Shown here piece by piece: positions 2,102-32,600 of a DNA stretch of 64,000 nt (the stretch's first letter is position 1; the number at the start of each line of letters is the position of its first letter). The position numbers and the translations under genes were made by a program. Source of the stretch: Octopus vulgaris (taxonomy: Eukaryota). The notes beneath the pieces are model-generated. The model worked only from the letters and a program-made list of their open reading frames with translations, did no database searches and was not told the origin of the DNA. The stretch covers positions 20,026,001 through 20,090,000 of the forward strand of contig OX597838.1 of the NCBI GenBank assembly GCA_951406725.2. The letters run 5' to 3'.

Positions 2102-2221
2102 GTGAACCCTCATTTTGCCATTGACCTCGTTGCTGATGACCCAGTGGTTGTTGTGGATGCCAAATCTATCTGGAGCAGTGGTGGTGGTGCTCTTGGACAC
2201 CCCAGAGTATTCATAAATTTG
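2102..2221 (+). CDS. NDUFS6: NADH:ubiquinone oxidoreductase subunit S6 (13 kDa), internal coding exon; upstream exons lie outside the window
   Basis: AG at 2100-2101, GTAAGT at 2222; 120 nt, phase 0-0; translates [40 protein letters not shown], matching the NDUFS6 signature VNxxFAIDL...[14 protein letters not shown]. Confidence 0.95.
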
Positions 2222-2435
2222 GTAAGTTTTATTTTAACGAATCTAAACCACCATCAGTATACTGTAGAATCCTGTATATAATACTTCTTTCGCTAAAATC
2301 ATAATTAAATTTTGAGGTGTGTACAATAAATGGTATTAAGCTGGAAAGTTCCACCCACCACCTGCTTTTAATAAGCCTTTGAGTGAGAATTCAAATTTCA
2401 TGGTTATTCCAGTAATGATGTTAAATATCTATTAT

Positions 2436-2741
2436 GGCTCACATGGTTAGAGAGTCAGGCTCACAATCATGAGGTAGTGAGTTCGATTCCCAGACCGGGT
2501 TGTGTGTTGTGTTTTTGAGCAAGACACTTTATTTCATGTTGCTCCAGTTCATTCAGCTGTAGAATGGAATTGTGATGTCACTGGTGCCAAGCTGTATCAG
2601 CCTTTTCCTCTTCCTAGGAGCAGGGAGATTTGTATGCATGAGCAACTGCTGGTCTTCCATAAACAACCTTGCCCAGTCTTGCGCCTCGGAGGGTAACTGT
2701 CTAGGTGCAATCCCATGGTCAGTCATGACCGAAGGGGGGTC
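2436..2741 (+). mobile_element. tRNA-derived SINE (family C variant)
   Basis: TGGCTCACATGGTTAG...AGTTCGATTCCC, then TTGAGCAAGACACTT...GTTGCTCCAGTTCATTCAGCTG; related heads at 11547, 11930, 16740, 35142, 43414, 61576 and on the - strand near 42058 and 46420. Confidence 0.75.
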
Positions 2742-3043
2742 CTCTGTCTCTTCACACAGCTGTTGTGCAATAGAATTATACGTAGTACTATAGGATAATT
2801 AATGAAGATCAGGAGAACAGAAATTTACACATCCATATTTTATTATAGTTATTTACATTGTTCTTCACTTGGACGTATGGACGTTTCAGCTGCACACTGT
2901 TAAGTGTGCATCTTGGTGCAGCTTCTTCAGATTCCATTGTTTACTGCCATTCAAAGATCATCTGAAGAAAACTATGAGACTGAAACCGTTTTTGGAAATA
3001 TATACATATGTGTGTGTATATATATATATATTCTCTTTTACTC

Positions 3044-3422
3044 TCTTTTACTTGTTTCAGTCATTTGACTGTGGCCATGCTGGAGCACCGCCTTTAGTCG
3101 AGCAAATCGACCCCAGGACTTATTCTTTGTAAGCCCAGTACTTATTCTATCGGTCTCTTTTGCCGAACCGCTAAGAGACGGGGACGTAGACACACCAGCA
3201 TCGGTTGTCAAGCAATGCTAGGGGGACAAACACAGACACACAAACACATCTATATATACATATATACGACAGGCTTCTTTCAGTTTCCGTCTACCAAATC
3301 CACTCACAAGGCATTGGTCGGCCCGGGGCTATAGCAGAAGACACTTGCCCAAGGTGCTACGCAGTGGGACTGAACCCGGAACCATGTGGTTTGTTAGCAA
3401 GCTACTTACCACACAGCCACTC
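3044..3422 (-). mobile_element. SINE family A, near full length
   Basis: Reverse complement of the 1601-1979 element; embedded in (TA)n. Confidence 0.9.
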
Positions 3423-4039
3423 ATATGTATATATATAATAAATTAATAAATAAATAAAACATGCATATATACATACATATATGTATGTACCTACCTCTAC
3501 ATGTATATATACATGCATATATGGGTACAGGACACCAAAAAAACGTCGAACACAATGAGAAACGAAAACATAAACACAAAACCAAGGAAATGGACATTTT
3601 TTTAAAACAACGAAATAATAGAGTACAGGACATACAAAACAAGGAAAATTCCCCTTCTTCAGTCGCCTTAATTTCATCTACTCCACGTTTCGAAGGTCAA
3701 GGCAAATATATATATATTCAGCCGAAATTGCAAAGATAATCTGGTACTTGACTGAGGAAAAAAAAGCTTCGAATGACCCGTCCTGCTAAGTTAGGGGGAT
3801 ATAAACAAACCAACACTGGTTGTCAAGTGGTGGAGGCAAAATACAGACACAAAGGTACACAAACACGCACGACAGGCTCCTTTCAGTTTCCTGAGGCTAC
3901 AGTGGAAGACACTTGCCCAAGGTGCCACGCAATGGGACTGAACCTGAAAACATATGGTTGGGAAGTCAGCTTCTAACCACACAGAAACTTTTTGTTATGT
4001 ACATATTGTAAATGTTTCCTCTTTGTTTTTTTTTTTCAG

Positions 4040-4165
4040 AATAAACCTCAGATAGCAATTTGTGGCTATTCTGGCCGAAGGTTTATTCAAAAGAAGTTTT
4101 ATAATGAAGCGGAACATGGACCATCTATAACCTACGAGGAGTATGTGGCTAATGCAGGCAAATAA
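4040..4165 (+). CDS. NDUFS6: NDUFS6 last coding exon
   Basis: Poly-T tract and CAG at 4037-4039; NKPQIAICGYSGRRFIQKKFYNEAEHGPSITYEEYVANAGK then TAA at 4163-4165; corresponds to the conserved DK...CGYCGxxF segment. Confidence 0.92.
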   Translation, partial: NKPQIAICGYSGRRFIQKKFYNEAEHGPSITYEEYVANAGK

Positions 4166-4256
4166 AAAAAATTAATCAAGTATTTAAATTATATTCAGAA
4201 GCAAAAGTGAAAAAAAACCTAATTTAGTTGTAGTGAAGAAAATCAAAAAAACTGTA

Positions 4257-4262
4257 AATAAA
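4257..4262 (+). promoter_or_regulatory. Candidate polyadenylation signal of NDUFS6
   Basis: AATAAA ~90 nt after the stop, followed by a T-rich tract at 4285-4310; a second AATAAA overlaps the stop (4161-4166). Confidence 0.5.
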
Positions 4263-4418
4263 TTTAAATGAATCAAATATTTCACTTGTTTTTTTCTATC
4301 CTGTTGTTGATCGGGAACTCACTTGTTCTTCTTAACCCTTTTGTGACCCCCCCTTCCATTAGCACAGTGTGTATATGTCTCATTAAATCTTGAGATTAAT
4401 CAGGATTTTGGTAGGGAT

Positions 4419-8840: not shown

Positions 8841-9704
8841 TATATAAATATACATACACACACACATATATATTTATTATATAGTATTAATTGATATTGA
8901 GAGAGGATGTTAGATATAAATAAACACCAGATAATATCTTTTGAACACAATGTTTTGAAGTTTTATACACAATTACATATACTCCTATACAGAAATATAT
9001 ATTTACACATATGTACAAGTATGCAAATATATGGTAAACACCATATTCAAACAGAAAATATGAATAAATTAGATGAAAATTGCACTTTCATCATCATCAT
9101 CATCGGAAATATATTATAGAAATTATTATATTACAGATTGGTAATGAGGAAAAAAAGGAAACCTCAAATAATTCTGGAACTTTTATGCAATTTTATGGAA
9201 GACAAAACTTCCTGCTTCGTTATCTTTTAAGGGAGGGGTGGAATCAATTAAAAATCTTAATTCAAGCATTTAGTGTCTTCAAAACCATGGAAGATTTGTG
9301 GGCAGACAATGGCCTAAATCTGGCAACTTGTAAAAATACAGCACAAAAAAAAAAAAAATCTACATATATTTTAATAATAGTCAGATAGGACAACCTTGTA
9401 GTTGTCAGTGTGTATAATCTGTTGACTGAGCTTAATGTACACTTGCTCTGCGCATGTGTGTGTGTACAGACTTCAAAAGTAAATAGAGTCCACCCATGAT
9501 TTTACCGTTTCATTTGTGTGAGAACTACTCATTTGTATGAGGCCCAAATGGGTTAAATCATTTAAAAACTGCACAAAGCATGTCTATTAAATACTAGATT
9601 TAAGTATTTATATATATCGAAGAACATTTTATTTATTAAGATAGATATTTCATAAATGGTGTCTTTTTACTTTTGAAATGTGTATGTGTGTGTGTATATA
9701 TAAT

Positions 9705-15618: not shown

Positions 15619-18600
15619 GAACATTGCTATTGAGAGAAACAGTGACTATGTTGAGAAGTAGGGATGTGATCCACAGAGGACCAGCTTCATTTTGATGTAT
15701 GAGGGGTCTTGAGCCTCAAAAAAAAAAAAAACATAGTACAAGACTTCTGATGATTTATTTTTCAACATAGTCCCCCTTGATGGCTGATGACTTCCTCCAG
15801 CAGTGCTGAAGCACCATTATCCCAGCGTAGAGGAACTCCTTTGTTTGAAACTCCAAGAAACTTCCTACAGCACCTATGATGTCATTGTCACTGGCAAAAC
15901 GGGGTCGATCTAATCAACTTACCCACCACTCCCAAACTTCCTGGCTTTGTGCTGAAATTGGAGACCAATATTTATGCAATTGTATGCTCAGGTATACATG
16001 TAGGATGAAAAGGGGAGATGAAATGAGGAAATGAAATAGTAAAGGATACAAACCTGAGCTGGTCATGCCCATAGAAAGCTGGCTGTTTGGAACTAAGGGA
16101 GGCGGAGGGAGAGCATTGCAGTCTTTGTTTTCCTTGAAAATTAAAAGAAATTAATCAATTAATTAACCTAAATAGCTATACAGGGTGTTTTAGTTTTAGA
16201 CAAAAAGTTAACCATAAGGGAAAAGGAGTAGTGGACATTAAATAAATCAACTCTTAAAATCAACTTCTTATAATGTTTCAAATGTTAATTAACTAACTTT
16301 TATAATGTTTTATAATAAACTAACGTTTATAATCTGTTGTGTCTGGGGAGAGTCATTTTCTTTTTGTGCCTTATAATAAGTGGAAATTTTACCGGTGAGT
16401 GTGTTACATTATAAGGCACAAAAAGAAACTGACTCCCCCCAGACACAACAGAATATGCTTCAACACTTGAACTCATATAAAGAATCTTGCAAACAAAATC
16501 CAAAAACGAAATAACGTTTATTATGTTAATTAACTAACTTTTTCAGTGACATGTATGGCTGTGTACTTAAGAAGTTGGTTTGCTAACCATGAGGTTTTGA
16601 GTTTAGTCCCACTACACAACATCTTGGGCAAATGTCTTCTACAACAGTTTGGGGTTGACTAAGAGTTTGTGACTGGAATTATTAGATGGAGAACGAAAAA
16701 GTCCCCTGTGTATGTGTGTGTGCGTGCCTGTGTGTGAAGGTGTGTAGCCTAGTGGTTAGCGAGTTGCAGTTATGATTGCAAGATCATGGTTTCAATTCCT
16801 GGACAAGGCAGTGTGTTTGTGTTCTTCATTTCAGTTTTAAATGCGCTTCCCTGTGAAGGGCTGGCATCCAGTTTTATGTGAATGCCATGATTTCAGTCAC
16901 CTAACCTTTGAGGTAGCATTATTCACAAATCTACAACAATTTGAAGAAGCACATTGTGACCAGCTGTGTATAACAACATCAGATAGTCTGATTGATAATG
17001 TGATATATATATATATATATATAAATCTTATAAGCAAATGAAAGACGTGTAATGGTGAATAAATAATACCAAAAAAATTCCCAGTTTCTCGTTTTGTTAT
17101 ACAATAACTCTGCAAATAATATTTCCATAATTCTCCATTTTAATATGTATTTTGAACTAATGCACAGCAGCAACTGAGACTACATATTGGATAGTAATAA
17201 TAGAATAATTAGCTGTGCTTCAAGAGGAAACATCTGGAATTTATCCTAACTAGCGATACTATATATATAATATACACACGCCCATACATACACACACACA
17301 CATACATACACATATATATGTGCATACATATACATACATACAAATATACGTACATATACATGTATATATATATACACACATATATATACATACATATACA
17401 CACACATGCATACACATATATGTGCATACATATACATACAAATATACGTACATATACACACATATATACATATATGTAAACACACACACACAGACACATA
17501 TACACACATACACATATATATAAATATACAATAAGATATGAAATAAATAACCCTTAGTAATATGCAATTGTTTTACAGGTTCCCCTAAAGCTGCTATCTG
17601 GTGGACATATCCAAGAATTCTTGGAAAAGAATTAGAATAAAATTGTTGGAAAAATATGCTTACAAGAATATTTTTAACAGTGCTTCTATGTCCCTGGATG
17701 GCTTTGAGACTCTTGACAACGAATTCCTTATCTATATCTTTAATCACATCAGGATTTGCATTCATATAGTCCAAGCAGCATTGATATTTTCTACAGGCTT
17801 TCTCGATGAGTCGCAAACGTTTTCTGTTTAGGAGACCAGTAAAATTCTCCAGAACACACTTGCGGCGCTCATGCAGGTTTATTTTGGTTGCCTGTAACGT
17901 TTGGAATTTCGGAGCATCATTGTTCTTCTGAGCGAGTTGCACCTCGCAGTTAATGTGATCGAGCACTTCTCGTAAAGTTACCAAACGCTCGACTGATTTG
18001 GTAGGAATCTTTCGCATAAGAATAAGGAAACAGCCTTCTGATGAGTACAGACTGTCTTTTTCTTCAGCCAGGAGAAGACTAAGGGGAATCTTCTGGTGTG
18101 GAATTCCGATGCCATTCTTTTCTGCTGCTGAGATCATGTTGGCTCGAACTTTATGCACGGCACGTCTGACCTCAGGGTCTGTAATATTAGCATCCTCTTG
18201 CATCTCTACGTTGTTTGTGCTATTGCTGTCATCATCTGAATCTTCTTGTGCCTCAGAAGAGGACAGTGAGTTATGGAGTCCCTCCTCCTCTGGTCGACGT
18301 TTCAACCATATGTTTTGCAAGAACTCTATGGAGTCAGACATAGACTTCAAAGAACTACAGATAGGAATACTGTCTAAATTAAAAGCTGCTGATTCGGAAG
18401 AAGAAGAAGGTGGCGGCATAGGTATTTTGGGAAACAAATTTGTTGGTTCGTTACCATTATTATTAATTGTTGGTGCCTGTTTCAATGCTTGCAACTGACT
18501 TTGAATTTTCTTTCGAATCTTTTTTCTTCTTGTTTTTGACATTGTATCGAATCGTGTGTCTAATGATACACCGAGGGTTTTCTTAATAATATTGTATTCA

Positions 18601-21600
18601 GAACAGCCTTGTTCGACAAACATCTGAACATATTCATCTATAGTATCAAAGGAGCTGCATTTCTTCTCCTCTTCTTCTTCCAGAGGTTCTTTCAACTGCT
18701 TGGCAGTTTGTTCCAACAGTTCTTCATAGCTTATATCTTCAACCTCCGCCTTAAGCTTTTTCTTCTTGCTGTTAGAGAAAGGAATCGAACCATCTTCTAA
18801 CCAAGAGGATGCATCACCAGGGAACGGTTGTTTCCCTCTGTAAGCTCTCCCACCCAGTTCTGATTTAGGATCCTTAGTTGACAGCCTGTCGAAAACGCTT
18901 TTACCATGTTTAGGAAACCGTTGCATTGGGCCTTCCATTTCATTTGGAATCCAAGCATTAAATTGATTAAATTTGGTAACATTGCCAACCATATTATCGT
19001 TATCACAGTTAAAGGGGTCTCCTTTATCAGAGCAGTAACCACTACTGTTGCCAGGGAAGAAATTTTCTGATTGGTTATATTGGAAACCTTTATCATAGAA
19101 GTAGTCATCAGTTTTCTCATATAGGAATCCATCAATTTTATCCTGGCAGTAGTCATCTGGATTATGGGATGGTTCGTGTTTCTTGAATGAACGACGTCGC
19201 GTTCTCTTAAAAGGATATTTATTTGACTTCCCGCGAGGATAATTTTCAGATTTTCCTCTGGGAAACTTTTTATGCTCCTCATTATAATAACCATCAGATT
19301 CCATTTCGTAGTTTTTAGAATCTTCTGGCAAGCAATTGCCCATTTTATTCGGAGGGAATGGTGCAAACTTGCCCCCATGCGGATAATGACCACGTTTTCC
19401 ATGGTAGTTCTTAGGTTTCCCTCGCTTATTGCCATCGGATCGACCACAAGAATAATTTTCCATTTGGTTATGTGGAATATCCTCAGGCATATTGTATGGG
19501 AAGCTATCATCATGTTCTGGTGGATAATTATCCATCTGATTCATTGAATAACCTTCAGGTTGAGGGAAAGGACAGTCTTCCATTCTGTTGTGTGGAAATG
19601 GCTCAGCTCTTTTTAAAGGAAAACAGTTACGCGAGAAACCTTCAGGTTGTTCAATCGAATAATTATCCATACAAGCATGTCGATATCCATCAGGCTTATT
19701 TTCCATATCCCATGGCATATCTCTTGGTGGTCTGCCAGGATTAGACTCATAGAACCTCTCATCGTTTGGATGGTCCCTTTTATCATGCCACCATCGCTCC
19801 CTTGGGTAGTTATCAAGTGATTCCGACCGTCTCAAAGGCTCAAAACTTTCTTTTGCATTCATATCACAATCATCATCCTCATCAAGTAGTTCTCCTTCTT
19901 CTAGCTCTGAGTCACAATTCTGTTCATTCTTCTCATCATCACCATCATCTTTTCCTTCTACTTCTTCTTCTTTCTTTGAAGACTTCTTTGACTTACTGCC
20001 ACTGTTTGTTCGAGCTACATTGGGCACGTCAGTCTTTTCGCTGCCCTTCTGTTTATAATTAATCACTATAGGAGGAGCATCACTGCTTCGACCAGCTTTC
20101 TCTTCTGCCTCTGTCTTCACAGGTTTCCAAAGATTCTCGGCCCATTTTTTCTCAGAGGATTTATGATGCTTTGATCGGCTAGAACTTTTTTCCCCAGATG
20201 ATCTTTTGCTGCCTGACTTCTGCTGTTCTTTCTTGGCCCACGCAGCTCTCTCTTTGTCGGACATAGCAGACGTCTTTCCCGCAGGCAGATCTCCACTGCT
20301 TTCAGAAGGCTGTGATGCCAGTTCCTTCTTGATTTTTTTCACCGATTCCAACAGTGCTTGGAGATCAGATTTATGCTGCTTCCGTTTTGAAAACTGCTTT
20401 GCTAGTTCTTTGAGGAGTTTCCTGTTAGATTCCGGCAAAGAAGCTTCTTTTAGCTTTCTTGAATTAATAGTAGATATCTGAACAGACTTTGGAATCGGAT
20501 GCGACGAGTCATCATGCTTGCTTCGTTTAGACTGTTTACTTTTTGAGGAATTGGATGATTTGCTCCTTTCTTTACTGCTTCGTCTTTTCTTGGCGCCCAT
20601 ATATGATAAAAGTTTGGATACTTCGTTATTAATATCATCTGATGCTGCATTATCAGAGAGCAGATCCACATCCTGCGAGGCATTAAGACCTTCAGTTGCA
20701 GACGTGTGATCATCAGTACTCTGCTTTGAGGTGTCAGAAATTGTACCAGCAGCTGCATCATTCTCATTATCACAATCATTACTGTCTACTGAACTCAGTT
20801 CTTTTCTAGAGGCTTTACTATACGCTGGTATAGCAATCTCGGGCATTGCATTGCTGTTAAAGGAGTCTGGTATCATTGAAGGTAAAAACAGCTCGTTTGA
20901 GGAAGATTTTTTCATTTTCACATTCTCGGCCTTTTCAGCCAAACCATCTTTTGAAGATTCCGAAGATTGAGAATGATCAAGACATGATAAAGAGGAAAGC
21001 TCCAAAGTTTTATCAGTTGGACTATAACAAGAAGACCTGCTTAATTCACATTTTTCTTTCTCCCGATCTTTAGTAGACTGCAATTCTGAAATTTCCAAAT
21101 TTGCATTTTCAGAGTCATTGGAAGCATCTGGTTTCGAATTTCTATTTGAATCTGTCTCTTTGGAAAGAGTTTCTAATTCTGAGCTACTTGCAGTCACAGC
21201 TTTTTTAGCAGGATCTGATGATGATGTTGATGGTGAAGATAATGATGATGTTGATGATTGAGCAACATTTACAGATGACATCTGGCTTTTGGGATTGATT
21301 TTGTCAGCAAACCAATCAACTAAATCATTTTGTCTTGGGACCATTAGAGGGTTAATGGGTCTGTTCAGTAAGAGTGGATTTGTTGCAGTTAAACCTGAGC
21401 CAGGAAATCCAACAGGGAATGGCATACTCTTGCTCAATAGCGACTGAGACATGCTGAGTGCGGGAGACCAGAGAAGCTGCTGTGAATGGAGGGAAGTAGC
21501 CAAATGTGAGGTTGAGGGAGGAATTGACCAGTCAATGTTTTTCAATGGGTTTGAAGATACCAAAAATGGTGACGGTGTGGGAAGCCAGTTTGGTGGAGGA

Positions 21601-24600
21601 AAGAGTTTCAAAGAAGAGAAAGCAGTGGGTGATTGAGATCTAGCTCTTTTCACTGATGTTCGTTTCTTTGCTGGTCTAAGGACTGGTATAGCCTGACCTG
21701 ACATACATTCATCTATTTGGTCGTCACCATCGTTACCAGCGTTCGTCATACTGTTCATTTCATCAGTTGTCTGGTGAGTTGTACTGTGCATATCAGTTAC
21801 CGTTTGGTTTTTCTTATTTGCTACATTTGAATCAGCAGTGGTTTTGTTGAAATCTTCTTTTCCTCCTCCTTGAATCTTCAACACAGTTTCAGTGAAATGC
21901 TTCCCCCTCTCCTCCTCAACCCCACACTTGGACTCCACAGCTGACTCACTCTTTTTTCCATTGCTGTCAGCTTGCCCTTTATTGTTCGTATCACAATTTG
22001 GGCTGACCGGTGAGTTGCTGTCCTTACTTCCTTTCACAACTTTGCGCAGCATGTCCATCATTTCATCCGATATGTTCAACGACGACACAGCTTTCGCTTG
22101 GCTCAATGTTGTCAGACTCTTCATCCAAATATGAGAAGTGTCGTTTGACGAGTCTTCGTGTCCTTTGTACTCGTAGGCACTAAACAGTTTGCCAGGATCA
22201 GAAGACGATGCTTTTTCCGAACCTTCATCTTTCGCTTCTGATGGAGAAACTGATCCAAAATCTTCATTTAAGGACTGGAAAAGGTTTTTGGCTTTTTCAT
22301 GAGATTTTTGTTGGTGAGACAAGTTTTTCTTATCTGACTCACTCTTACTGGCTTTACCACCATGCATAGAAGGCAGTTTCCAACTTGTTGCATCACAACT
22401 GTCATCATCATCATCATCATCATCATAGCTGTCAAGAGATTTTAACATCTCTTTAATTGGAGAAAGCCGATGATCATTATTATCTGAATGTGTACCGCTA
22501 GCACTTTCATCAATATACAAAGGCTTCGTAAGGTCTTCGTTGGAATTATCACTATCGTCACTATCCGCATTCATGCAGTGTCCGGGTGAGAATGCTCTCA
22601 TGCTACTGTTTCTTTCTGAATTCAATTTGCCCTCACTGCCAGGTTTCTGCTTTGAGACCAAAAGCTTCGAGTCTTCCTCTGACACTGAGTTTGTGTCATC
22701 AGATACAGATTTTCGTGGCAACATCTCTCTATAGAATCCCCAGGTTTTATGATCATTTCCAGGTTCGTTTTGTGGAACAGACTTCACTTTGGCTGGTTCT
22801 TCATTTCTCTCTGGTGAAACTGGAGAATACATTTCCCCTTTCTCAAGTGAAATAGAAGTTGAGGGCTTGAAGCCCTTAATTATTTCTTTAGAAAATTTGG
22901 CATAATCTGGGATGTTATCTTTAGAATGTGGCTTTTCTTCAAAAGAAAGTTTGGGAATTGCAGGAGTTACATCTTTATTAATAGGGATCACCGACAGCTG
23001 TTTAGGTTCATATATGGGTTTTGGTTTATCAACTGAGGTTTGGATGATACACAGATTCCATGGTTTTTTGCTGATAACTGTTTTAGAAGAGCTTGTCATA
23101 TCTTTGCTAATGTGTGCAGATACGTCTTCAATTTCCTCACTGTTGATCTTCACTGGATTATATAAGTCTGCTGGCGATTCCTGTAATAAGAGAGGTTTGC
23201 CAGATTTATTGCCATCGTTTGTTAAAGGATTACTTGACAAATCTCGGTTCATACGCAAAAGTCTTGGATCCCTTGGTAAAGAAGGGTCATGTATTGATTC
23301 CTCTTTCGATGAATGTATATCTTGTGATGCTGGTGGTTGGGAAGGTGGGCCTTTAGAGACAGCCAGAGATAGATTTTTAGCAAGTCGGGGGTCAACAAGA
23401 CCAACTTGTTCCCTAGGGTCTTTCAAAGAAACTGTTACTGAAGTAGGTATAGTTTTAGGGAGAGCAGAAGGTTTTTTAGATAAAGGTTTGTTTTTAGGAA
23501 ATATTTTTGGGTCATCCCTTACAGAAGAGAGTGGCTTGTTGGTTGATGGAATAATTTTAGGGGATTGGGGAATAATTTTGGGAGACTGTGGGGTAGATTT
23601 ATTCAGTTGAGGATTACCTTTCAATAATGGGACTGATTTCTGTAGTGATGGCATTAGCAATGGAGGTAAAGGTGGATTTACAGGTAGTAAAGGTGGAATT
23701 ACAGGTAGTAAAGGGGGTATACTCAACGGCAATATCGGATTCACATTCATTAAGGGAGGAATAGCCTTTTGTATTGGAAGAGGAAGCTTTGGTAGGGGAA
23801 GAGGCATCTTCAGAGGTGGAGGTTCCTTTTGAGAGCCAACCAATCTTGGATCTCGGAAATTAGGTGTAACCAAATTACTGAACAAATTTGGTGGTTCAAT
23901 GTCTTTGGGGGTTTCTAAGAGGAGTTTCTCCGGTTTTGGTTTCTCAAATATTGGTGGCTCCTTTTCTGCTGGGAAGATATCTTGCAATGAATCAAAAACA
24001 TTCATTTTCTCTCGAGGCGGGGATTTGGGTTTTAACCGTTTCTCTTTGTAAGCTTCAAAGGATATGACAGACTTAGGCTTTTTCGGTTCTGTGACAACAA
24101 TAGGAGGTGGCTCAATTATTGAATCAAGAAGGAGGTCAACCTTCAAAGATTGGTCTGTAGCAGGGAAAGTGGAAGGAGTTATTCCAGTGCCTTTAGTCAG
24201 TGGTTCAGCTCGAGGTGTTTTCATGATGCTTTTCGGAACAGTAGTAGCAGTAGTAGTAGTACTAGTAGTGGTACTAGCAGTAGTAGTGGTAGCTTTTGCA
24301 AGGGTACTTGTGTTGCTTTTGCTTTGAAGAGATGATGTTGATGAGAGAGGATGTGTAGATGTGGTTGGTTTTTTGCTGGGAACAGATGTAGTTGATAGTT
24401 TCTTTTCTTTGTCAGGTTTTGAAGTTGTCGAAGTAGAAGAAACCTTTTTATCTATACCAAGTTTCTTTTCCTTCGGAGGACTTTTGCTAGAAAATTTGTC
24501 TTTTGCTACTTTGATTTTCTTTTTGAAAGAATCACCCGAAGAGAGTTTCAATAGTTTGTTGGCTTTTTCACATTTACTGACAAATTTTCTTTTGGCATCA

Positions 24601-27600
24601 TTTTTCAGAGAAGTAATGTCGATTGTCGAACCGAATTCTTCTAAGTCTACCTTAGAAACTGGAGATGGTTTAGAGTGAAATTTTGAAAGTTTGATATTAG
24701 TCGCAGATTCACTTTTACTTGTCATTTGGGAAGTAGCTGAAGAAAGAGATTTTGAAAGTGATTCAGCATTTGATGTCTGTTCTGGAATGTTCAGAGCATT
24801 CATGAGGTCCTGGTGACTTCCAATCCAGTTCATCACATTAGATGTTCCTTCTCTTTTCAAATGACTTGTGATCTAAAATGAAAAAAAAAAAACACATTAC
24901 ACAGTAATTATTTAGAATTAGTGTAGCTTTTAGTTTAGAATGATTAAGTTTAATGTTTGAGGCATTGGATGTAGTGTGCAAGGGAGAACACTGGGCTGGT
25001 ATGGGCGAAGACAGCTGCGTAAAAAAGTGCTGGTCTCTAACTGTGGAGGGGAACCTGTGGAAGAGGTAGACCCAGGAATTTCAACGAAGCAAATGACAAG
25101 TGACCAAGACTTCTGGTGATTTGCTGTGCTTGGGAAGACATGTCAAGCTTAGTGGAAACATAGTCATGGAGAGTGCCAGTGACACATTAAAGGCTTTTGT
25201 GCTGGTGACACATGAAACGCATCCAGTACACTTTGTGGAGTGGTTGATGTTAGGAAGAGTATTGAGACAGAGAAACCTAGAACCTGGTGTGACTCCCCAG
25301 CTTACCAGTTCCAATCAAATTGTAAATTAGCTGAAAAATTATTCTGCATATTGATAATTTAGGTGGTTTGCTACTTTTGGGATACAAACTGGGACCCTGA
25401 CCAACTCTAGCTGGGCCGACTTGGTGAAGTGGATGGATGAGGTGGAGTGGGGAGGCGTTGAAAGAGCAGAAACCCCCGTGAGACCCCAGAAACATCACTG
25501 ATGATGTATCCCAGATCATCCAAGAGATGCATCGTGAAACTAAACAAAACTCAATGTTATAGGGTTAATTAAAGTGGGGAAGCATGTGAAACACCATTTT
25601 CAGTCACTAGCATAGAAAACTAAAAGACTATGATGAGGGCGACTGGGCTATTACCATTATCATGGTGGTGGTCTATGATTGATGGTGGTAGTGATGCTGA
25701 TGACTATGATGGTGTGATGGTAGCACTAGGTCATTGTGATAACAGTGTAATGACTAATAATAAAGATATGATGATGAAGCTTAACAAGGACTAACTGGTG
25801 CTACTCTAGCATGTGGTCTACCACAATATCCATAGTCTATTAGCTGTGAAATGATCTAATCTGGATTAGGTTAAAGGTCAGGTTTAGTATTAGGGTTTCA
25901 GGTTAGGGTCAGGTTTAGAGTGAGGGTTAAGGTTTAGGGTAAGGGTTATGATCAGGCTCATGGCTTAGGGTAATGGTTTAGAGTTAGGGTTAAGGACTGG
26001 GCTAGACGGTATGCTAAAGTGTCAATAGCCAGGTAGACGGTATGCTAAAGTGTCAATAGCCAGGTAGACGGTATGCTAAAGTGTCAATAGCCAGGTAGAC
26101 CGTATGCTAAAATGTCAATAGCCAGGTAGACCGTATGCTAAAGTGTCAATAGCCAGGTAGACCGTATGCTAAAGTGTCAATAGCCAGGTAGACCGTATGC
26201 TAAAGTGTCAATAGCCAGGTAGACCGTATGCTAAAGTGTCAATAGCCAGGTAGACCATATGCTAAAGTGGCACCAACAAACTTTAGTAAACTGGTTCATG
26301 GTTTACAAGCTTGAACATTATTTCTTTAACAAGAGGCATAATATAGAAATACAGCATGAAACTATTGTTATTGTTGCTGTGTGACAAATGGAATTATTTT
26401 ACAAGAAAACAACTGAACACAAACAGGTTAACTCACCTGCTTTATACAATCATTCAGGGCCACAACTGGCTGAAACCGTACTGAGAACATAGCAGATTTC
26501 CAGTCATCATAACCCAATTCTCTCAGTGTTGGCGTTCGCTTCGCAGGTAATTCTTCACCAAATAAAGATTTCTCTTGTTCAAGATATAAATCAGATATTG
26601 GGAAATCTAAATCTAAATATTTGTTGAATTCTGAGAGAAGATTGTTATCTTTTGATGTCATTTTGTCTCCAAATGTACTAGTTGTTGATGCGAGGCTGAT
26701 GTTGTCAAATTCTGATGCTTTTCTCCTCATTTTCTGCCGTTTCCGTCGCCGCCGATAGCCAGTCATATCAAAAGGTGCTTTCTTTTTAAGCAGGCTCCGA
26801 GACGCCATAGAGCACTTTTTCTTTTTGCGCTCACTTGGGGGTAAATACAGACTGTCAGCTTCTGACACACTGGTAGACTCAGAGTTGTCTGGGTCTAACA
26901 ACAGAAGTTCTTTCATCAGCTTTGTATTGACATCATCAATACCAACAGCATCCAGAACAGGAGGAGGTATTTCATCACACAGCATTCCTTCTTGATCTTC
27001 TAGGAGTTTGTGACTCTGAGTATCTTTAATTTGCCTCTTCCGTAGTTTATGAAGGAATGATTTATATTTCTTTTCAAATTCTGAAACCTCAGCCACTTCA
27101 GCCCTGCTGCTAGCAGGTGCCTGGGGCTGCTCCCTGGCTTCAATAGTAGATTCTACGGTATTTAACAATTTTGACAGAGTCTCAGACTGAAGAGCAGTTT
27201 CCTACAAAACAAAATTTGGTCATTAAGCAATTTATATCATTATATTAATGCAATTAACATTAAATAATAGATGAAGATGATTCAGAAATATTTATATGTA
27301 ACTTTTGTCAAACTAAAACTATTTTAAAATTCATAATAAATGAGAAAATGACAAACAAACATTCCAATTTTAAAATATTTTCATAAAAATGTGGCTTTTA
27401 TGGTCCCTTTTTTAAATTAGTTCCCAAAGATACAATCAAATCACAAAATGGATTCTAATTCATTTTGACATCTACTTCCTGTGTATTATGAATTTCTTTC
27501 CATATCACAAAAATGCCAAGTGTGTATTGCACCTATTAAAAAGGAGGCAAATAATTTTGAAATTTCAAAATGTTTTGGCTTTCAGGAGGACGTTAAGTGA

Positions 27601-29661: not shown

Positions 29662-32600
29662 GTAAGTGTGTGTATTTGTGTTTCCTTATCTTGACATCAT
29701 GTGACAGTTGTAAATAATTGTCACTGTCATACAAGCAGTGTTGTTCATTTCTGGTATTCCACAAGAACATGTCTCACCATGGGCAAATATTACCTTGCTT
29801 GGAAACAGGTGAGGGTTGGCAACAGAAAGGAAATCTAACTGTAAAAAAAAATCTGTCTCAATAAATTCTTATCTGACCCATGCAAGCATGGAAAAATGCA
29901 TAGTAAATGATGAGGATGATGAGGATGAGGAGGAGGAAACAGAAAAGTGATGAAGAACAAGCTGAAGGTAATTATCACTGTTGTGGTTGTTATTGTTGTG
30001 CTTTAGACAGAAAGAAACCTTTGGAATTAAATACAATAGTAAGAAAAGACTAAAAAATATCAAAGTAAAGATCATACCTTTGTTGATTCTTCAGGTTTTT
30101 TACTCTTTAGTTTTGAAGTTAAAGACTTTTTATTTGATGAAGGTTCAAATGGTTCGTTTTCTTGGGAACTCAACAACTGCATCATCAATTCATGCATGGA
30201 ATTGTCCTGTCCCTTTATGTGACCACTGGGGGAACTCTCAGCCTCCGAGGAACTCTTGCTTGACTTTGGAAATGTTACTGAAGTAACACTATCTGATGTT
30301 TTGCTGGAGCCTTTCTTGAACAGTTCTGATTCGAACAGATTTTTGGAGGCAGATACTGAAGCCTTCAGAAGGCTCTTCACAGAAGATTTCTTTGGCATAT
30401 CAGTGTGATGTAGAGACGGCTCTTTCTTAACTGTCGGTAATCTATCTAGAAGATCCTGTACACTCTTCTCTGTTAGTTCTATTTCAGAGCTTTTCTTTTC
30501 ACCGATTTTCGTTTCAGTAGTGGAACCGGCTGGTTTTTTCTTGTTTAAAGCAAATGGTATTGGCTTTCTAGTTTTAGCATTACTGCCACCACCACTATTA
30601 CTACTACTACTACTATTACTAATAGCAGTAGTAGTGGTAGTGATTGTAGTAGTATTTGAAGTGTCACCAATAGAATTCATGGTGCCTATGTTGGTAAATG
30701 CTGTGCCAGAACCACCTGATATTTTATTATCACAGTTGTTTAGGTAGCTATTCCTCCAGTCCTTATTCTCAAAAAACTCGGACCCACTTGCATGCCATTC
30801 AATGTTTGCAGGTTTATTCTGGGAATTTCCTTCATACTGATTGAGATTCATGTTTAAGGCAACTTCTTCTTCGTTATGCTTCCATGGATGTTGGTCCCCT
30901 AAGCACTGAGGATCAACTTCATTCTGCAACAAGGGTCGACTGTATGGAAGTGGATACCAATTCATCTGGTCAGTTGGTTCATTGCTGTATCCAGGCATTG
31001 GGTTTGGTTGACCCCAAATATGGCTGACGTCCATTTTAATGTCATCGGTGTAAAACTGGGGCTTGAACTGTCCATTGTTTTCCATAGAAAAACTGGGATT
31101 ATCTACAGGAGGTGGGCAATGTTCTGCATCTAAAGGAATTTGATCTTGACGACATTTCATTCTTGGATCTGATCCAGATCTTTGAACTAAGACTTTCTGA
31201 GAGATATCAGGAAGAGGTGGCTGTGGCCCATATCCTAGGAATAAACTTGCTAGCATTCTACATTGCTCATTTGCAGTGTCTTGAGGAAAAACATTTTGAA
31301 GCATATGGTCCCTGTCTGATAAGCCTGGACCTAACAGAGGCGGTCGTATTCCTGGAAGCATTCGAATGTTAGGCTCGAGGTTATTTGGGACATTTTTAAA
31401 GGGGACTGGATGACGAGGTCCTTTTTTCCAATCGCTTTTCTCATCAGATTTTTTGCTAGGGGGAGGACCTTTAGTTGGATCGTAGATATAAATAGATTTT
31501 GAAAGTGATCCAGGTGTAATAGTATCTGCTTTTCGTTCGTAGGTTATCACAGCATAAGGAAGACAGTGTCGAGGGCGAGGTGCGGGCATTCCCTCATCAT
31601 CATATTCATACAAGTATATCTGAAATGGTAATGAAGAGTGACATTTATTTCGGAGAAAAGTGAAGGAGCTCAAGTTATTATAAACCTCATCTTTAGAGAT
31701 GAAATTTTTTTTCACAATGTATACTCTTTTACTCGTTTCAGTCATTTGACTGTGGCCATGCTGGAGCACCGCCTTTAGTCGAGCAAATCGACCCCGAGAC
31801 TTATTCTTTGTAAGCCCAGTACTTATTCTATCGGTCTCTTTTGCCGAACCGCTAAGTGACAGGGACGTAAACACACCAGCATCGGTTGTCAAGCAATGCT
31901 AGGGGGGACAAACACAGACACACAAACACACGCATACATATATATATATATATATATATACATATATATACGACAGGCTTCTTTCAGTTTCCGTCTACCA
32001 AATCCACTCACAAGGCATTGGTCGGCCCGGGGCTATAGCAGAAGACACTTGCCCAAGATGCCACGCAGTGGGATTGAACCCAGAACCATGTGGTTGGTAA
32101 ACAAGCTACTTACCACACAGCCACTCCTGCGCCTAATGTATGATATTTGCACAAAAAATAAGTTTTGTTTGATGTATTTAGTTTTAGCATTTCTTTTCAC
32201 AATGTTGCTACCACTTGCAAGCTCCAAGTCTTTACTGATTTTTCATTAAATGACTGAAGTCTTATTCATGGATGTGGACTTCCAGAGTCCCAGACAAAGT
32301 TTTTGACTAACAATGATAATGTATGCTTACAAAATCTAATAAACAATAATTCATTTAAAAGACTCAGACATTTACAACTAAAAAGGATTAGAATAGTACA
32401 GAGACAACTACAGATTACAGCTAAGAGGGAGTTAATCTAATTAGCACATCTATTAAATATTGTCAATAACTAAATATGATTTCAGTGTTAATTCTCTCAT
32501 TGTCTATACACTTTACATTAAGTAGCTATCTTTGATACTCCTACGTCTGTTTGTACTCACATTACTGTGACCTTTGGGCAAATAAATGACATGGACACAC

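Follow-up and report, generated by a model that had tools for sequence, protein, structure and literature searches.

The window that we analyzed, a 64,000-nucleotide stretch of the Octopus vulgaris genome (assembly GCA_951406725.2, contig OX597838.1, positions 20,026,001 to 20,090,000 of the forward strand), carries on its plus strand the last two coding exons of NDUFS6, the gene named in the original prediction for this DNA. Exon 3 (2102..2221) is an open frame of 40 codons encoding residues 67–106 of 147, and a phase-0 GT..AG intron of 1818 bases in which interspersed repeats are abundant (intron 3, 2222..4039) separates it from the coding part of exon 4 (4040..4165), likewise an open frame, which supplies residues 107–147 plus the stop codon. 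The first two exons are located upstream of the window (L002:7304-7447 and 9158-9211), and the four exons together encode a protein of 147 residues (48+18+40+41). Exon 3 matched mammalian NDUFS6 at an E value of 2.8e-9 and corresponded to residues 63–103 of the human protein in a HMMER alignment. The human gene likewise has four exons, and both introns flanking octopus exon 3 (introns 2 and 3) coincide in position with their human counterparts (c.186 and c.309, following codons 62 and 103), as these are given in an excerpt of PMC7699753. At the other end of the gene, exon 1 was 96% identical to that of the Octopus bimaculoides orthologue (P0004), a protein that matched the ovine chain 5lnk_b at an E value of 1.2e-27. 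The locus is an intact four-exon NDUFS6 orthologue.

Two other features of the region deserve mention. Intron 2 of NDUFS6 contains a head-to-tail duplication of ~105 bases, placed by eye at about 594–808 of the window. Farther along, an open frame of 2537 codons on the minus strand (17262–24872), which had no Pfam match at an E value of 0.01, is probably a very large exon of a neighboring gene; more long frames lie nearby (26431–27201 and 30075–31898).

The four positions at which NDUFS6 ordinarily binds zinc had the codons originally claimed for them. Ser91 (AGC, 2174..2176) stands at ligand 1, equivalent to human Cys87; His99 (CAC, 2198..2200) and Cys114 (TGT, 4061..4063) are the retained ligands 2 and 3, equivalent to human His96 and Cys112; and Ser117 (TCT, 4070..4072) stands at ligand 4, equivalent to human Cys115. 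The octopus site thus reads S-x7-H-x14-C-x2-S, as opposed to the usual C-x8-H-x15-C-x2-C, and lies outside the ligand set of the zf-CHCC family (PF10276), C-x8/9-H-x14/15-C-x2-C. In the HMMER alignment the first serine fell opposite the first cysteine of mammalian NDUFS6 and the following loop was one residue shorter, a register that is secure because a neighboring Trp and the usual Asp/Asn anchor it, so that codons and alignment agree on both cysteine-to-serine changes and the alignment upholds the shorter loop. The PF10276 profile recognized P0004 with 41.9 bits, above the curated cut-off of 27, although the match was confined to profile positions 9–37; a hemichordate protein with all four ligands (hereafter CHCC) scored 68.6 bits. 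Both sites were identical in the Octopus bimaculoides and Argonauta proteins, and the serines are therefore attributable neither to chance nor to sequencing error. The shorter loop is not in itself evidence against zinc, and we rejected it as the cause of zinc loss, because the same spacing occurs with four ligands in 8 of 252 CHCC proteins, in the nematomorph Gordionus and in several metagenome loci. We conclude that this NDUFS6 orthologue, which fails the zf-CHCC ligand definition, is a real, conserved and apparently undescribed variant: our literature searches, some of them loose and covering subscription journals sparsely and the main texts without supplements, found no description of an NDUFS6 lacking ligands. 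The variant has probably gone unnoticed because automated annotation still labels such proteins zinc fingers.

Spliced contigs from all four runs, which came from four studies, joined exons 3 and 4 across the 1818-base GT..AG gap; these contigs lack the intron, and the runs are presumed to be RNA although none is recorded as such. Over exon 3 the contigs of all four runs contained no letter differing from the genome, and over exon 4 three runs contained none, with the fourth having one other letter and one gap within 4039–4300, a range that includes UTR. Open exons, the GT..AG intron and the spliced contigs all bear out the contention that frame and splice sites are intact, and the contigs from the four studies carry both serines. 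A-to-I editing back to cysteine, already discounted in the original prediction, can be rejected on the logic of the codons (AGC would become a Gly codon and TCT would be unaffected, so Cys is unreachable) and on the agreement of the spliced contigs with the genome.

When we searched the octopus genome with its own NDUFS6 exon, the single candidate was this locus, and a four-ligand hemichordate CHCC query likewise returned this locus alone, only first-look candidates having been scored in each case. With the PF10276 profile, this locus was the best of 6 matches among 44 candidates; the other five had E values of 1.2–9.9, and the two of them that were translated (L007 and L009) lacked the motif. 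A second, CHCC-intact copy, the possibility that the earlier reading had raised against itself, was thus not detected in these own-genome searches, which a very divergent copy could escape. A search of the same genome with PF05071 found two exons of one NDUFA12-like gene only, and was too insensitive to show loss of NDUFAF2.

The variant extends far beyond octopus. We tabulated 80 named proteins, with group labels taken from general knowledge and checked for five, and found the serine-type site (S-x7-H…C-x2-S) in 26 of 26 spiralian proteins, comprising 22 molluscs of four classes (2 cephalopods, 1 chiton, 7 gastropods and 12 bivalves), 2 annelids and 2 rotifers (a bdelloid and Seison). All four ligands were present in 54 of 54 non-spiralian proteins, which came from sponges, cnidarians, echinoderms, hemichordates, vertebrates, arthropods, a nematode and one record labelled 'Clim'. 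Among lower-ranked matches, 62 of 63 were CHCC (nearly all named vertebrates) and one was serine-type. Capitella and the acanthocephalan Pomphorhynchus were also serine-type, as was the orthonectid Intoshia for the first half of the site, the only half present in its sequence. The named proteins retrieved included no flatworm, brachiopod, nemertean, bryozoan or chaetognath; the search accepted lengths of 80–258 residues, a limit that may explain the phyla missing by name and that full-length fusions of NDUFS6 to a kinase (described below) would exceed. In total we collected 394 proteins and parsed 343 for both halves of the site, leaving out 51 that were partial or irregular; the 343 comprised 72 serine-type, 17 threonine/serine-type, 252 CHCC and 2 irregular proteins. 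Serine-type sites also accounted for 11 of 80 metagenome loci. One serine-type record, P0033, bears the name of the alveolate Piridium, yet it shares 76% identity with the protein of the whelk Nucella. Piridium parasitises whelks, and we read the record as host RNA, rejecting it as an alveolate serine-type NDUFS6. With the serine-type found throughout the named spiralians retrieved, we also rejected an octopus-specific change: the original proposal that NDUFS6 is zinc-free or remodelled in this lineage finds its support at the level of sequence and the variant is certainly present in octopus, but the novelty does not belong to octopus, being common to molluscs, annelids, rotifers and an acanthocephalan. 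The octopus angle is therefore gone, yet what replaces it is a change at the level of a superphylum.

Some of the serine-type proteins have unusual architectures. At least five distinct ones (P0055, P0130, P0050, P0052 and P0132, probably joined by P0138, P0057 and P0049) carry an adenylate kinase (PF00406, PF05191) in frame at the N terminus, and those compared were about 50% identical to one another, which looks like a real kinase–NDUFS6 fusion in a spiralian subgroup. Both serine-type proteins that lack the conserved histidine seem to belong to this subgroup. The ESM Atlas offered generic zf-CHCC clusters only, and these did not place the kinase-fused subgroup. In Pomphorhynchus laevis (P0161), a single gene model of 1257 residues links the NDUFS6 domain to an SNF2 helicase, most likely through the merging of gene models.

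Conservation around the altered site is strict at some positions and loose at others. In an alignment of 64 serine-type proteins picked from the retrieved sets, the invariant columns were P80, S91, G98, C114, Y116, S117, G118 and G133; both serines and the retained cysteine are thus fixed in 64 of 64, and His99 is His in 62, Asn in one and Phe in one. Across all parsed proteins His99 was replaced in 2 of 72 serine-type and 0 of 253 CHCC proteins (p 0.049, a weak difference; the parser accepted only H, N or F, and the two His-lacking proteins are single records from one subgroup). The position after Ser91 is variable (Asp in 30, Asn in 22, Ser in 7, and others), and no new Cys, His, Asp or Glu near the site is universal among the 64 proteins: Cys occupies position 84 in 32 and position 94 in 5, and at tail position 132 there is a His in 57 proteins and a Met in the other 7. 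The gastropod proteins P0026, P0034 and P0040 (Lymnaea, Aplysia and Physella), together with P0028 and P0029, have a new Cys five residues before the histidine, possibly a regained ligand or a disulfide partner.

The serines are accompanied by a conserved C-terminal tail rich in tyrosine, a feature absent from the original prediction. In octopus the tail spans residues 124–147 (4091..4162), with conserved Tyr127, Gly133, Ile136, Tyr138 and Tyr141. Past the last ligand position, serine-type proteins continue for a median of 34 residues, compared with 10 for CHCC proteins, and the tail motif occurs in 68 of 70 serine-type and 0 of 252 CHCC proteins. A second correlate is a strand of four valines in octopus (residues 81–84, 2144..2155), which directly follows the invariant Pro80 and which we infer to be the face on which the tail docks. 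The fractions of hydrophobic residues at its four positions were 1.0, 1.0, 1.0 and 0.92 in serine-type proteins (n=64), 0.60, 0.18, 0.17 and 0.80 in short-tailed CHCC proteins (184 of 193 parsed), and 0.66, 0.64, 0.70 and 0.72 in long-tailed CHCC proteins (50 of 62 parsed). Positions 82 and 83 are the most telling, being hydrophobic in 64 of 64 serine-type proteins as against 18% and 17% of the 184 short-tailed CHCC proteins. These tail and strand counts come from related sequences and hence are not independent, and the contact between tail and strand, which is drawn from their correlation among such sequences, is accordingly put forward as a putative one.

We found no chain of any spiralian complex I in the PDB, NDUFS6 included, and turned to an AlphaFold2 model of P0004 built on our alignment. 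Its mean pLDDT was 78, with values of 89–97 over residues 101–140, and the predicted tail comprises a short helix, a strand (135–137) and a second helix (138–146); AlphaFold does not model metal. The predicted domain superposed on mouse and Yarrowia chains at 1.4–1.6 Å over 53–54 residues (Z 5.5–5.6), with mouse NDUFS6 fitting predicted residues 72–124 at 1.6 Å over 53 residues (Z 5.5). Chaetomium 7zm7_M matched more of the predicted octopus model, aligning 65 residues within 72–136 at 2.2 Å (Z 6.6), and a predicted sponge model also aligned with the Chaetomium tail. The fungal proteins (Chaetomium 7zm7_M and Pichia 9iho_R) and those of sponges likewise extend past the last strand, but they keep four ligands and have shorter tails, and in long-tailed CHCC proteins the strand is also more hydrophobic (64–70%). 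The tailed CHCC group is not one of flatworms, an identity that we rejected, its named members being sponges. Because sponge and fungal CHCC proteins have these shorter tails and both models fit the Chaetomium tail, the spiralian tail may extend an older one, part of which may predate loss of the ligands; in sequence, the likeness between spiralian tails and those of sponge and other long-tailed CHCC proteins barely exceeded that of shuffled sequences (6 of 62 at p<=0.05).

A tree of 82 proteins over 75 columns, from which the ligand loop and tail had been removed, was poorly resolved. It did not reject the 33 serine-type rows as one clade (p-AU 0.88), a result that does not demonstrate the clade; in the simplest history the variant arose once, close to the base of Spiralia. 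The serine at the first position is encoded by AGY in the window and in all ten loci that show it, several of which are redundant. At the fourth position the codon is TCT in the window and in L024 (mollusc-like) and AGC in L025 and L031 (annelid-like), a split that therefore implies either a serine codon switch or parallel changes from Cys to Ser. In a further group, the threonine/serine-type, ligand 1 is replaced by Thr and ligand 4 by Ser, with the His and Cys kept. Its 17 records form two clusters (P0189 and P0220 among the members), lack the spiralian tail motif and were placed beside CHCC proteins in the tree, which suggests that these two ligands were lost independently in this group.

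We consider it probable that these proteins represent an ancient zinc-free NDUFS6 that keeps its fold, likely stabilised by the tail, and its place in complex I. The geometry of the site would be preserved by the two serines, which together with the remaining His and Cys would make up a buried hydrogen-bond knot where the metal would otherwise sit. The longer tail would fold onto the newly hydrophobic strand 81–84 to make a small hydrophobic core, supplying the stability that zinc gives elsewhere, and the domain would still sit between NDUFS1, NDUFS8 and NDUFV1/V2, where it would cover cluster N4 and dislodge NDUFAF2, an assembly factor. The strict conservation of two of the ligands also fits a site that still holds zinc or another ion through His99 and Cys114, completed by the serine hydroxyls, water, His132 or a ligand from a neighboring subunit. 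Cys114 is kept in 64 of 64 proteins and His99 in 62 of 64, the serines have not drifted to Ala, Val or Thr, the His-or-Met pattern of position 132 is one that occurs at metal ligands, and the site lies at a subunit interface, for which Paracoccus complex I offers a precedent in a Ca2+ that bridges NDUFS6 and NDUFS8, 11.2 Å from the Zn, according to part of PMC11522691. Against this, the site has gained no neighboring Cys, His, Asp or Glu common to all of the proteins, the two proteins without His99 keep the rest, and His132 in the predicted model appears to follow a strand leading away from the Cys-x2-Ser turn, just before the invariant Gly at the end of a helix. To our knowledge, it would be very unusual for a structural tetrahedral zinc site to have two serines among its ligands. 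We regard a retained or rebuilt metal site as unlikely but, because the Cys and His are so conserved, still deserving of real weight.

The same invariance of Cys-x-Tyr-Ser could instead reflect a freed Cys114 that, beside His99, serves as a redox-reactive thiol for sensing or tolerating low oxygen or sulfide; Cys-x2-Ser motifs occur in thiol redox proteins, and the apparently separate threonine/serine group also keeps the His and Cys. We think this improbable, given that active aerobes such as octopus have the variant just as hypoxia-tolerant bivalves do, and the cysteine may simply be buried. Least probable of all, and in our judgment largely refuted, is that the serine-type gene is an artefact, a pseudogene or a secondary paralogue while a four-ligand copy does the work. 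Such a copy would have to be divergent enough to slip past genome searches that score first-look candidates only; the gene found is open over four exons and represented by spliced contigs from four studies, it was the only locus recovered with its own exon or the hemichordate query and the best match to PF10276, and no named spiralian CHCC protein appeared among the matches.

The zinc-free, tail-stabilised reading departs from what is established for this subunit in specific ways. Known NDUFS6 proteins (also called 13 kDa or NUMM; PF10276; human 5xtb_T, ovine 5lnk_b, Drosophila 8esw_S6 and Yarrowia 6rfr_M) share the N-terminal domain and, as modelled, the fold; the octopus protein differs in having Ser at ligands 1 and 4, a loop one residue shorter and a conserved tail ~24 residues longer (by medians), whereas the human and Drosophila chains in our alignments have all four ligands. 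The site of three Cys and one His has been described in humans, yeast and plants, and bound zinc in Paracoccus and Tetrahymena, in passages of PMC11180951, PMC7699753, PMC8762328, PMC8161149, PMC11522691 and PMC10060162. Excerpts of three of these (PMC11180951, PMC7699753 and PMC8762328) record that human p.Cys115Tyr is fatal in newborns and that p.Cys115Arg is also known, and give the last Cys, on the authority of reviews, as the most critical ligand in Yarrowia NUMM mutants and in humans. The ligand lost in those mutants is the fourth, as in Spiralia, but the human changes introduce bulky Tyr or Arg and are lethal or severe, whereas Spiralia have an isosteric Ser there, which is accompanied by a second Ser and has become fixed in several phyla. 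A parallel is seen in the gamma-carbonic anhydrase subunits of Tetrahymena, Euglena and Polytomella, accessory parts of complex I that were kept as scaffolds after losing zinc ligands (portions of PMC10060162, PMC10884005 and PMC8290278), although that case concerns a different subunit and a catalytic zinc. We rejected a zinc-free NDUFS6 in Tetrahymena as a precedent, as the zinc loss there concerns the gamma-carbonic anhydrase domain and NDUS6 binds zinc in the relevant section of PMC10060162.

What the metal does for NDUFS6 is described in a passage of one review as not clear (PMC7699753), and parts of two other papers link it to cluster N4 and to release of NDUFAF2 (PMC8161149 and PMC8762328). 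A whole superphylum without half of the ligands, including the most critical one, makes that role directly testable: should a spiralian subunit restore function to an NDUFS6 knockout in the absence of zinc, the metal has a structural role only, and the tail would reveal how loss of the ligands is compensated. As a candidate marker, the combination of two serines, one deletion and the tail might also help to assign groups of disputed position to Spiralia. We are more tentative, holding it at slightly less than an even chance, about the fullest form of the proposal, in which all Spiralia have a zinc-free NDUFS6 whose metal site, conserved elsewhere from alphaproteobacteria to humans, gave way a single time, ahead of the divergence of rotifers and molluscs, to a serine knot and a tail that folds back. 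If true, it would be a natural rescue of a position, Cys115, at which change is lethal in humans, it would prove the zinc purely structural, and it would give Spiralia a rare molecular character common to them all.
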